The notes below the pieces were generated by a model. It worked only from the letters and a program-made list of their open reading frames with translations. It was not told the DNA's origin and did no database searches. A stretch of DNA of 64,000 bases from Polyangiaceae bacterium (lineage in GTDB: Bacteria; Myxococcota_A; Polyangia; Polyangiales; Polyangiaceae). This document shows positions 50,052 through 52,726 of the stretch, piece by piece. The stretch spans positions 988-64,987 of the forward strand of contig DAOPOO010000024.1 of NCBI GenBank assembly GCA_035357995.1, given 5' to 3'. Each line of letters begins with the position of its first letter. Position 1 is the first letter of the stretch. The translations under genes and the position numbers were made by a program.

Positions 50052-51938
50052 ATGAGAACGGTATTCGTCGGTGGCGGACGAGGCTGTCGCGCTGTGCTGG
50101 AACTCGTGATCCAGCGCCGGCTGGCTACACTCAGCCTGCAAATCCTTGGCGTTGTCGACCTGGACCCCGATGCGCCGGCCATGGTTTTGGCTCGCGAAAA
50201 TGGATGGCGAACCTTTACCGATCTGGCCGAAGCCATCCGATTGCCCGACCTCGAATTGATCATCGAGGTTACTGGCATCGATATCGTTCGCGACGAGATC
50301 GTGCGTCGGGCTCCCGCCGGTGTGCGCGTAATGGATCACACCATGGCTCGCGTGTTTTGGGATCTCGACGAAGTGGCCCAGAACCTTCGCGGTCAACTCG
50401 ATGAGAAAACCAAGCTGGAAGCAGAAATCCAGCAGGATCGTCGCAACTTGCAGGACATTCTCGATTCTTTGCCGGATGCCGTCATGGTGGTCGATGAGCA
50501 GGGCCGTATCGAGCGCGTCAATCGTCGTTTCGAAACGTTGACCTCGCTTCATCACGGGCAAATCCAGGGGCAGTATTGTGCGGCGGTTTGTTGTCCGCAC
50601 GAGGATTGTTCTCGCGGCGTGGTGGTGCCGGATTGTCCGCGAATTCAGGTACTTGCCAGCGGTGAACCGCTGACTGTCATTCGCCAGCATGCATGCATTG
50701 GCGCGCATAACGGCGATCGGGAGGCGTATTACGAGGTGACCGCGAATCCCATCGGTTCGCCTTCGGGAAAGCGACGGGTGGTCATCACCTCCCGAGAGGT
50801 CACCGAGCAGATCTTGCTCACGCGGGAAACGAAGGAAGCGGCTCATCGTTTCGATCAAATCATGGCGACCGTGCGAGGCATCATCACCATCAAGGGGTTG
50901 GATGGCCGGTATCAATTGGCGAATCCGAGTGCCTCTCGTTTTTTTGGCATTCCCACCGAAGCATTTTTGGGCAAAACGGCGCGACAGCTTTTTTCTCCGG
51001 CCATTGCGAGTGTCATGGAACGCAACGATGCGGCCATCGTGCGAAGTGGGGGGCATCGCAGTGATGAGGAAGTGTTGGTTCTTGGGGGTGTGGAGAAAAT
51101 CCTGATTTCGGAGCGGATTTTGCTGCGCGATTACAAAAACGAGATCGTGGCGATCTGCAATGTGTCGCGGGACGTTACCGATTCGCGACGCTTGCAGCAC
51201 GAGCTATTGCTGACGGAAAAACATGCGGCCGTGGGCAAGCTTGCGGCGGGTGTAGCCCATGAAATCAACAATCCTCTGACGGGGATTCTCACGTTCGCGG
51301 AGGAATTGCGCGACGATGCGGAGCCTGATTCCACCGCGCGGGAAGACCTGGATTTCGTGGTTCGCGAGACGCTGCGTTGTCGGCAAATCGTACGGGATTT
51401 GCTCGATTTTTCTCGTCAAACCAAACCCGATCGACAGCGTCTTCGTCCTGAATCCGTCTTGCGCCAAGCGCTCAAGCTCGTGGAAAAACAAGCGTCTTTT
51501 CACGACATCGTCTTTCGTGTGCATGTCGAGCCCAACACGCCAGAAGTGCTCGCGGATGCGAACCAGCTTCAACAAGCGATTCTCAACCTCATCATCAACG
51601 CGCGCGATGCGATGGGAGGAAAAGGGGCCATCGACTGCTGGGTAGGGGTCGATGAAGCAGGAATGGTGGTATTGGATGTCAAAGACGAGGGTGTGGGCAT
51701 CCCCGAAGAGCATTGGGCACGGGTATTCGAGCCGTTTTTTACCACCAAAGGAGCCCAGGGAAACGGCTTGGGCCTTGCAGCCGTCAGAAGCATCGTCGAT
51801 CAACACGCCGGACGCATCACCGTGCAATCCACGATGGGAAAAGGTACTGTATTTCGTGTCGTCCTTCCCGCTGCCGGGGAGGGAAGACGGGGTTCTTCCA
51901 CGGAAGAAGCCAGGAAACACGAGGGGAGCTATTCATGA
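50052..51938 (+). CDS. Cytoplasmic sensor histidine kinase: a Gfo/Idh/MocA-like Rossmann N-terminal domain, two or three PAS domains, and HisKA plus HATPase_c.
   Basis: N-terminus 'MRTVFVGGGRGCRAVLE...LQILGVVDLDPDAPAMVLARENGW'. H-box 'HEINNPLTGIL'. N, G1 and G2 boxes 'IINARDAM...VKDEGVGIP...GNGLGL'. No TM helix. Confidence 0.8.
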   Translation: MRTVFVGGGRGCRAVLELVIQRRLATLSLQILGVVDLDPDAPAMVLARENGWRTFTDLAEAIRLPDLELIIEVTGIDIVRDEIVRRAPAGVRVMDHTMARVFWDLDEVAQNLRGQLDEKTKLEAEIQQDRRNLQDILDSLPDAVMVVDEQGRIERVNRRFETLTSLHHGQIQGQYCAAVCCPHEDCSRGVVVPDCPRIQVLASGEPLTVIRQHACIGAHNGDREAYYEVTANPIGSPSGKRRVVITSREVTEQILLTRETKEAAHRFDQIMATVRGIITIKGLDGRYQLANPSASRFFGIPTEAFLGKTARQLFSPAIASVMERNDAAIVRSGGHRSDEEVLVLGGVEKILISERILLRDYKNEIVAICNVSRDVTDSRRLQHELLLTEKHAAVGKLAAGVAHEINNPLTGILTFAEELRDDAEPDSTAREDLDFVVRETLRCRQIVRDLLDFSRQTKPDRQRLRPESVLRQALKLVEKQASFHDIVFRVHVEPNTPEVLADANQLQQAILNLIINARDAMGGKGAIDCWVGVDEAGMVVLDVKDEGVGIPEEHWARVFEPFFTTKGAQGNGLGLAAVRSIVDQHAGRITVQSTMGKGTVFRVVLPAAGEGRRGSSTEEARKHEGSYS

Positions 51939-52726
51939 CCCAAAATCACGACGCTGCCAACCGCAGGGTTTTGGTCATCGATGACGAGGACGTCGTCCAT
52001 GCGAGCATGAGGAAGGTCTTGTCTCGTCTGGGCTTTGGGGTGGACGGAGTCTTATCGGCTCGGGAAGGTCTTGCGCGGCTCCAAACCGACTCGTTCGACT
52101 TGATCATCACGGACCTGATGATGCCGCAGATGAACGGCATCGAGTTGCTTCAAGAGCTGCGTGCGCGGGGCAATACGACCCCTGTTCTAATGGTGACGGG
52201 CTATCCGACCATACGCACTGCCGTCCAGGCCATGCGACTGGGTGCGGTCGATTACGTGGCCAAGCCTTTCACGCGAAAAGAACTATTGAGTCCGGTCAAA
52301 CGGGCGTTGCGCATCGAGGATCAAGCCATTCACGAGAGCGAAGGCGTGGTGCATCCTCAATCTCTCGTGCCCGGAATGACCGTTTTTCTTCCGCACCACT
52401 CCTGGGCCCGTTACGAACAAGAAGGTACCTTCGCGGTGGGTGTGGAAGAGAGCTTTCTGAAAGCCACGGGGGCCATTTTGGCCATCACCCCACCGCAGGA
52501 AATCGAGTTGATCGAGCAGGGATTCGTGGGGCTGGTGCTATCGAATGAAGAGGGCGATGCCCACGGCGTGGCGATGCCGCTGAGCGGACAAGTCGTGGCG
52601 GTCAACGAACAGGCGTTTCATGATGCGACAAGCCTGGGGCCCGAGACGTGGCTCCTGCGGGTCTTGCCTTCGGCGTTGGCGGAAGAATTGCCCTTGCTGG
52701 TCGTCAAACGCGACAGCCCAATGTGA
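51936..52726 (+). CDS. Response regulator (receiver domain) fused to a C-terminal GcvH-like beta-barrel domain that lacks the lipoyl lysine.
   Basis: The ATG overlaps the kinase stop (ATGA). Receiver 'RVLVIDDEDVV...DLIITDLMMPQMNG...VLMVTGY...AVDYVAKPF'. The C-terminus 'HSWARYEQEGTFAVGVEESF...PLSGQVVAVNEQAFHDATSLGPETWLLRV' parallels GcvH. Confidence 0.7.

Follow-up and report, generated by a model that had tools for sequence, protein, structure and literature searches.

A histidine kinase with a Rossmann-type N-terminus and a response regulator with a GcvH-like output domain belong to a conserved cassette with a kinase-like gene

A stretch of 64,000 nucleotides from a Polyangiaceae bacterium (GenBank assembly GCA_035357995.1, contig DAOPOO010000024.1, positions 988 to 64,987 of the forward strand), referred to as the window, encodes a sensor histidine kinase followed directly by a response regulator. 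The pair accounts for two of the three genes of a conserved signalling cassette, the third member being a convergent gene for an atypical protein with a eukaryotic-like protein kinase fold (coordinates of all features in Table 1). We rate the ensemble as a two-component system of known kind with unusual input and output modules plus a conserved third component. In the reading preferred here, to which we assign an even chance of being correct, the two-component system receives a redox or metabolic input, and its regulator acts by contact on the kinase-like partner within this three-gene cassette.

The linkage of the three genes was evident from the neighbourhoods of their homologues. All three regulator homologues that were looked up are encoded together with a kinase and a convergent gene for a product of 316-337 amino acid residues (aa), with unrelated outer flanks. 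A genome scan with the partner identified 95 loci in Myxococcota, Acidobacteriota, Planctomycetota, Desulfobacterota and KSB1, with the best homologue (82% identity) in a metagenome-assembled genome labelled 'Polyangiaceae'; a metagenome scan with the regulator identified 62 loci. Locus content was called with home-made hidden Markov models, and a partner was counted if it was located within 4.5 kb. By this measure, 23 of the 26 distinct loci centred on the regulator that were informative contained the partner, and about 30 of the 80 centred on the partner contained the regulator. Four gene orders were observed: kinase→regulator←partner, which is the commonest and the one found in the window, kinase→regulator→partner, partner→kinase→regulator, and partner→regulator. 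Comparison of the window with another cassette locus (L087) at the DNA level revealed only the three cassette genes in common. The conserved gene neighbourhood indicates a functional link between regulator and partner, and the partner gene, for which there is no curated family, is regarded as part of the signalling system. In a locus from Desulfurivibrio sp. C05AmB (L067, 4938-6418), a distant partner homologue is followed by an open reading frame (ORF) of 162 aa whose start overlaps the preceding stop by one base; its N-terminal sequence, from which alone it was judged, resembles that of a universal stress protein (USP).

The junction of kinase and regulator genes reads ATGA, so the stop codon of the former and the start codon of the latter overlap; both start codons match the N-termini of homologues. 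Pfam analysis of the kinase identified two PAS_4 stretches (the better one at aa 137-253, E = 1.5e-28), a HisKA and a HATPase_c domain. The two hallmarks of a HisKA-type kinase were found, an H-box histidine in the dimerisation and phospho-acceptor (DHp) domain and intact N (NLIINARDA), G1 (DEGVGIP), F (FEPFFTTK) and G2 (GNGLGLA) boxes, and H403 was invariant among the aligned kinase homologues. The best full-length similarity in NCBIfam was to transmitters of the AtoS/ZraS type (NtrB-like). No transmembrane segment was detected in the kinase; the highest mean Kyte-Doolittle hydropathy over 19 residues was 1.29, and the kinase is therefore considered to be without a membrane segment. These results confirm what a previous reading of this DNA without database searches (the sequence-only reading) had described, namely a kinase that lacks transmembrane segments and has PAS domains before a classical transmitter, and whose stop overlaps the regulator start (at 51935). 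All descriptive points of that reading, regarding ORFs, domains, overlap and output domain, proved factually correct. Its interpretation is supported in part: the Rossmann-type N-terminus and the lysine-less GcvH-like output stand, whereas the proposed link to the sugar-nucleotide cluster is not supported. It rightly recognised the kinase/regulator pair but overlooked the convergent partner gene, the cysteines of the first PAS domain and the operon variants with a CxxCH-containing sensor.

The receiver domain of the regulator contains a complete set of catalytic residues, as read from the sequence (D16/D17, the phospho-acceptor D60, T88 and K110). The C-terminal output domain was assigned to GCV_H by Pfam and matched E. 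coli GcvH (3a8i) with an E value of 3.9e-6; the same combination of receiver and GcvH-like domain was found in 30 further proteins. This regulator family (n = 31) was aligned with 21 genuine GcvH proteins from the metagenome scan, all carrying the ESVKA motif. Both groups have HxW and MPLSGxV in common (H155-x-W157 and MPLSGQV in the window). At the lipoylation hairpin, the window regulator has SNEEGDAHG in place of ESVKA and no lysine. The hairpin of the regulator family reads N-x-x-G-E-E-H-G-V, is one residue longer than that of GcvH and contains an invariant histidine, H210. Lysine is absent at the position equivalent to residue 207 in 30 of 31 members, and the remaining hairpin was judged by eye in the aligned blocks. 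An AlphaFold2 model of the two-domain regulator had a predicted local distance difference test score (pLDDT) of 91.2 and a predicted template modelling score (pTM) of 0.87, the latter suggesting a defined inter-domain packing. A Foldseek search of the full model against the PDB returned receiver domains only (query-normalised TM-score ≤0.45), among them those of RssB, and thus no solved relative of the whole regulator.

A DNA-binding domain was not found in the regulator, as Pfam matches comprised Response_reg and GCV_H only and NCBIfam matches were confined to the receiver. Since the output domain is a homologue of GcvH without the lipoyl lysine and contains nothing DNA-binding-like, a protein-protein output is the reasonable reading. 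The sequence-only reading had arrived at the same view of a GcvH-like barrel without the lipoyl lysine and of a protein-protein rather than a DNA-binding output, and had proposed a comparison of the regulator C-terminus with GCV_H (PF01597); the score above the gathering threshold, the match to 3a8i and the hairpin alignment bear it out. Regulators of the OmpR, NarL and NtrC types have a DNA-binding output domain, which the window regulator lacks. With GcvH, it has the barrel, the HxW and MPLSGxV motifs and a profile score above the gathering score in common. It differs from GcvH in the fusion to a receiver and in the missing lipoyl lysine, without which it cannot serve as a swinging-arm carrier. 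RssB-type adaptors resemble it in that the receiver is joined to a catalytically inactive version of an enzyme or metabolic fold, which works through protein contact. Here, however, the output is GcvH-like instead of PP2C-like, and the presumed partner is kinase-like instead of a sigma factor or protease. A precedent, by analogy only, for a lipoyl/H-type barrel that docks a protein kinase is pyruvate dehydrogenase kinase on the E2 lipoyl domain; that system involves a GHKL fold and a lipoyl group, whereas a eukaryotic-like kinase fold and a lysine-less barrel are present here.

The unusual input module of the kinase is its N-terminus. No Pfam or NCBIfam family matched aa 1-130, and relatives were collected by an exhaustive profile search, because a single-sequence word-index search with the head yielded 5 close relatives only. 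A profile word-index search retrieved mostly short fragments and was drawn on solely for precomputed Pfam matches and source names. The exhaustive search revealed at least 1,181 cluster representatives (50% identity) at E ≤ 1e-3 and 472 at E ≤ 1e-10, with the match nearly always at the extreme N-terminus of the protein. In ten sampled proteins, the head was followed by PAS domains and then by HisKA/HATPase_c, hybrid kinase-receiver, sigma54-AAA+/HTH_8, HD-GYP or HisKA_3 outputs. Some sensor kinases contain two or three tandem copies (P0036, P0041, P0055), a habit of sensor modules that supports a role of the head as N-terminal input. The head was also encountered as stand-alone proteins of approximately 125 aa on megabase contigs (P0237, P0240).

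An AlphaFold2 model of the head built from 43 diverse members (pLDDT 94.2) showed a β1-αA-β2-αB-β3-αC-β4-αD-β5 topology with five strands, followed by a long helix; predicted strands comprise aa 2-6 (β1), 30-35 (β2), 69-72 (β4) and 92-94 (β5). When the head profile was compared with the PDB, five acylating acetaldehyde dehydrogenases of the DmpF type ranked on top (1nvm_B with E = 1.5e-5, all five below 6e-4), followed by weaker matches to homoserine dehydrogenase (0.024), Rex (0.038) and a Gfo/Idh/MocA enzyme (0.041). In scans of the 43 diverse heads one by one, 8 weakly matched NAD_binding_3, 2 GFO_IDH_MocA (E ≤ 0.01) and 1 DapB_N; the window copy gave none of these matches, and PF01408 did not match it at E ≤ 0.1 in the Pfam scan. 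Some short relatives of the head bear precomputed PF01408 matches and names such as 'predicted dehydrogenase', and the fold matches include KijD10, entries labelled Gfo/Idh/MocA, and one labelled merely 'oxidoreductase', which we take to be WlbA, solved with UDP-N-acetylglucosaminuronic acid (UDP-GlcNAcA). Thus, the resemblance to the NAD(P)-binding domain of Gfo/Idh/MocA dehydrogenases put forward earlier holds for the Rossmann fold but not for the PF01408 match, with the DmpF-type enzymes being the closer relatives.

The motifs of the window head are G7-x-G9-x-x-C12, D36 just past β2, E72-x-T74-G75, D95-H96 and W103. Among 143 instances of the family, G7 was conserved in 100%, G9 in 99%, C12 in 93%, E72, T74 and G75 in 97-98%, D95 in 90%, H96 in 88% and W103 in 96%; C12 stands where the GxGxxG motif has its third glycine. 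At the position of D36, the family has Asp in 63%, Cys in 22% and Ser in 13%. In the model, the conserved residues are located at or just past the predicted C-terminal ends of β1, β4 and β5. It is these strand ends that form the lining of the dinucleotide crevice in classical Rossmann enzymes. The assignment of the predicted structure to the NAD(P)-type Rossmann fold is solid. For the clade of the window copy, sensing of nicotinamide adenine dinucleotide (NAD(H)) or coenzyme A (CoA) is plausible because G-x-G-x-x-C and the β2 Asp are kept. We prefer to regard the head as a separate family of Rossmann sensors without a model of its own, for which we infer NAD(H) binding.

The likeness of the head to the acetaldehyde dehydrogenases DmpF, MhpF and BphJ concerns their NAD/CoA domain and is co-linear through β1-β5. 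It stops at around residue 105 of the enzyme (approximately the first 100 residues), beyond which the kinase chain forms a coiled helix and PAS domains. The kinase thus has no counterpart to the part of DmpF in which the catalytic cysteine and the dimerisation domain are located. With Gfo/Idh/MocA enzymes, the NAD(P)-binding Rossmann fold is common; in the kinase, their C-terminal α/β domain for substrate binding and oligomerisation is absent, and β5 is followed by a long helix and the first PAS domain. Among other Rossmann sensors (NmrA, KTN/RCK), Rex couples the fold with a canonical GxGxxG to a winged-helix DNA-binding domain, whereas the head described here is truncated, has G-x-G-x-x-C and feeds into PAS domains and a histidine kinase transmitter.

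A second candidate input resides in the first PAS domain (PAS1), which contains a cysteine-rich insertion at aa 175-196 (bases 50574-50639, YCAAVCCPHEDCSRGVVVPDCP). In 34 cassette kinases, C176 was conserved in 30, C181 in 25 and C195, which is part of a CP motif, in 30, in addition to a loop cysteine at a variable position. These approximately four conserved cysteines suggest a thiol, metal or iron-sulphur (Fe-S) centre. The cytoplasmic PAS histidine kinase NreB is an oxygen sensor with a four-cysteine [4Fe-4S] cluster; the window kinase resembles it in being a soluble PAS kinase with around four conserved PAS cysteines, and differs in the cysteine spacing. The Rossmann head is missing from the kinases of partner→kinase→regulator operons, in which two transmembrane helices flank a periplasmic domain that bears CxxCH and Cx4CH motifs of the haem-binding type. 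Taken together, the Rossmann head, the PAS1 cysteines and the haem-motif variants make redox or metabolic state the recurring input theme of these kinases.

The convergent partner scored 25.3 bits against Pfam Pkinase, which is below the gathering score of 31.7. A profile of four partner orthologues matched the MSK1 kinase domain best in the PDB (E = 1e-6), and PAK and Pim were also found. In the alignment with these kinase domains, H192-G-D194-I-R196-N-D198-H199 falls on HRDLKPEN, D213-F-D215 on DFG and DVWSMG on DLWSLG. In 102 distinct partner sequences, K86, E111, the whole HGDxRxDH loop, DFD and D224 were 100% conserved. The partner keeps the catalytic Asp (D194, at the HRD position) and the metal-binding Asp (D213, at the DFG position), and the position of the catalytic-loop Asn is taken by the invariant H199. 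An activation segment ending in APE was not found in the partner; DFD and DVWSxG are a mere 8 or so residues apart, so that the protein is essentially without an activation segment.

From these components, the following mechanism may be envisaged. The kinase would read the redox or metabolic state through its truncated Rossmann module, with NAD(H) as ligand in the Asp36 clade and possibly CoA as in the DmpF-type relatives, and a second input would enter via the PAS domain with its roughly four conserved cysteines, which may form a thiol, metal or Fe-S centre. The signal would pass along the long helix into the PAS and DHp domains and set the autophosphorylation of H403, from where the phosphoryl group would be transferred to D60 of the regulator. 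Phosphorylation of D60 would then shift the packing of the receiver on the GcvH-like barrel, so that a conserved hairpin face (E194-Q195-G196, G207-H210, MPLSG) becomes exposed or hidden; this face is predicted to correspond to the one by which genuine H proteins dock on the enzymes they serve. The hairpin face would bind the kinase-like partner and switch its activity. As this switching would be contact-based, the output would be post-translational, not transcriptional. The phosphotransfer chemistry follows from the intact motifs and established two-component biochemistry; we infer the ligand, the direction of control and the physical contact. As a tentative model in which we place rather little confidence, the two-component system would be hard-wired to a eukaryotic-like kinase that lacks an activation loop, with a lysine-less H-protein barrel as docking switch under the control of phosphorylation and a Rossmann NAD(H)/CoA input.

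Several observations weigh against contact between regulator and partner downstream of a cofactor-sensing head. Among regulator homologues with long flanks, the closest one (L086, 81% identity) and a further one (L096) lack a partner within 4.5 kb; a regulator is likewise missing near the partner homologue of highest identity (L006, 82%), and distant partner homologues pair with other genes, such as the ORF in L067 or DegT. Moreover, a conserved neighbourhood is evidence of linked function and not of direct contact. The Asn-to-His exchange and the near-absent activation segment may mean that the partner is no protein kinase at all. With regard to the head, the third GxGxxG glycine is replaced by Cys and only 63% of family members keep the β2 Asp; furthermore, the fold is truncated to five strands and the window copy has no Pfam match.

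The variability at β2, the Cys at the third glycine position, the truncation and the missing Pfam match, together with the conserved PAS1 cysteines, would also fit a head that binds no dinucleotide and serves as a dimerisation or scaffold module or as a thiol sensor based on Cys12 (oxidation, CoAlation or metal), PAS1 being the real input. We consider this somewhat unlikely, given that G7 and G9 are almost universally conserved, that the other conserved residues are positioned at the strand ends of the crevice and not on the putative dimer face, and that the sequence relatives are genuine NAD/CoA binders.

The direction of control between regulator and partner could also be reversed, the partner phosphorylating or otherwise modifying the GcvH-like domain at the hairpin, and the regulator integrating two inputs and acting on a third party. 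H210 and the conserved hairpin are located at the covalent modification site of H proteins, the active-site residues of the partner are invariant, and cross-talk of Ser/Thr kinases with two-component proteins is well known in Myxococcota. In the hairpin, however, no conserved Ser or Thr is conspicuous except S217 of the structural PLSG motif, and no third conserved gene was seen in the inspected loci; we consider this alternative improbable.

Even less probable is that the regulator functions as a decoy H protein that, when phosphorylated, docks on the P, T or L proteins of glycine cleavage or on lipoate enzymes and modulates one-carbon or 2-oxoacid metabolism, with the partner not being the target. 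The output domain is indeed closely related to GcvH, with HxW and MPLSGxV retained, and in the glycine cleavage system H proteins act purely through docking on partner enzymes. However, none of the gcvP, gcvT, lpd and lipoate-ligase families of Pfam was found among the called neighbours of the cassettes in the handful of loci inspected (L001-L005). In addition, the kinase-like gene is the only consistently linked one, and the hairpin has been remodelled, with its additional residue and the invariant H210.

The least probable alternative takes the ligand of the head to be a sugar nucleotide, or NAD(H) in connection with sugar oxidation, and the adjacent polysaccharide/sugar-nucleotide cluster to be regulated by the pair: genes for a DegT aminotransferase and a hexapeptide transferase are located directly upstream on the same strand, DegT homologues adjoin the partner gene in three other loci, and the fold matches include the sugar-nucleotide-acting KijD10 and WlbA besides the Gfo/Idh/MocA-labelled entries, but the sugar in Gfo/Idh/MocA enzymes is bound by a C-terminal domain that is absent from the kinase, and the flanks differ in every other locus examined.

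With respect to this neighbourhood, the position of the pair directly after a sugar-nucleotide cluster, as noted in the sequence-only reading, is correct, whereas a functional link is not supported by the flanks. Those of other inspected cassettes encode unrelated proteins (OmpA, thiolase, a Dicty_CTDC protein), and no DegT gene was present in the 2.6 kb upstream of the 80%-identical kinase in L086. Control of the polysaccharide cluster by the pair is thus unlikely, as the neighbourhood is not conserved even next to a closely related kinase. DegT-type genes are situated directly upstream of the partner in three loci without a regulator (L022, 3861-4967; L026, 3894-4967; L034, 3852-4961), and the deduced products are 41-43% identical to that of the window gene. 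These three loci seem to derive from one lineage and have common synteny, in which the upstream gene looks like one for seryl-tRNA synthetase (judged from the N-terminus) and the downstream genes look mreB/mreC/mreD/PBP2-like. The recurrence of DegT at the partner is the one counter-hint and provides a weak link to aminosugar genes. The gap between the window DegT gene and the kinase gene amounts to 178 nucleotides. Within it, at 49984-50002 (+), lies a hairpin rich in GC (CCGCGG...CCGCGG) that has a weak T tail. A promoter and terminator scan of 49700-54100 performed no better than on shuffled sequences; as terminator-like sites were no commoner than in shuffles, the hairpin cannot be called a terminator.

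Table 1 Features of the signalling cassette, its upstream neighbours and related kinases in other loci.
Feature	Position	Strand	Description
Hexapeptide transferase gene	48050-48781	+	upstream of kinase, same strand; Pfam
DegT aminotransferase gene	48788-49873	+	upstream of kinase, same strand; Pfam E 4e-120
Sensor histidine kinase	50052-51938	+	628 aa, soluble; Rossmann head, PAS1, PAS2, HisKA, HATPase_c; ORF call, Pfam, NCBIfam
N-terminal Rossmann-type dinucleotide-binding-like module (predicted)	50052-50387	+	aa 1 to ~95, then long linker helix aa 96 to ~130
PAS1	50448-50810	+	aa 133-253; Pfam PAS_4 aa 137-253
PAS2	50850-51191	+	~aa 267-380, boundaries approximate; second PAS_4 stretch, AtoS alignment from aa 263, motif positions
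HisKA dimerisation/phospho-acceptor domain	51234-51419	+	Pfam aa 395-456, E 2.4e-17; H-box AHEINNPL, H403
HATPase_c catalytic domain	51555-51872	+	Pfam aa 502-607, E 1.5e-25
Response regulator	51935-52726	+	263 aa; ATG start at 51935, translationally coupled to kinase via ATGA overlap
Receiver domain	51968-52294	+	aa 12-120; Pfam Response_reg E 2.3e-30
GcvH-like β-barrel output domain	52391-52687	+	aa 153-251; Pfam GCV_H 26.5 bits, gathering score 22.2
Atypical eukaryotic-like protein-kinase-fold gene (partner)	52832-53791	-	319 aa, convergent to regulator; HGDIRNDH, DFD, DVWSMG
Operon-type kinases with periplasmic CxxCH/Cx4CH haem-binding-type motifs	L036, L038, L042, L044, L049, L050; about 5900-7500		

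Elsewhere in the window, an ORF at 54039-55589 (+) encodes a 516-aa fusion of a PlsC-type acyltransferase (aa 57-190) and an α/β-hydrolase of the Hydrolase_4 family (aa 277-489). Two tRNA genes at 11477-11550 (-) and 41826-41899 (+), distant from the pair, were the sole Rfam matches in the window. An assignment of the genes to a defence system was dropped because PADLOC gave only weak, generic similarity to receivers or kinases.

Searches of the open literature retrieved no description of receiver-GcvH regulators or of Rossmann-PAS kinases, and we know of no earlier account of a histidine kinase that senses NAD(H) or CoA directly by means of a Rossmann module. If the reading proposed here is correct, the head, which is abundant (at least 1,181 clusters) and lacks a family model, would represent a general, unrecognised bacterial route by which cofactor state is fed into signalling via kinases, sigma54 activators and HD-GYP proteins, and one binding experiment could annotate a large signalling class. 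The receiver-GcvH fusion would be a new class of response regulator output, in which the H-protein fold has been recruited for signalling. The cassette as a whole would then provide a testable case of a two-component system that is wired by contact to a eukaryotic-like kinase, in Myxococcota and several other phyla.

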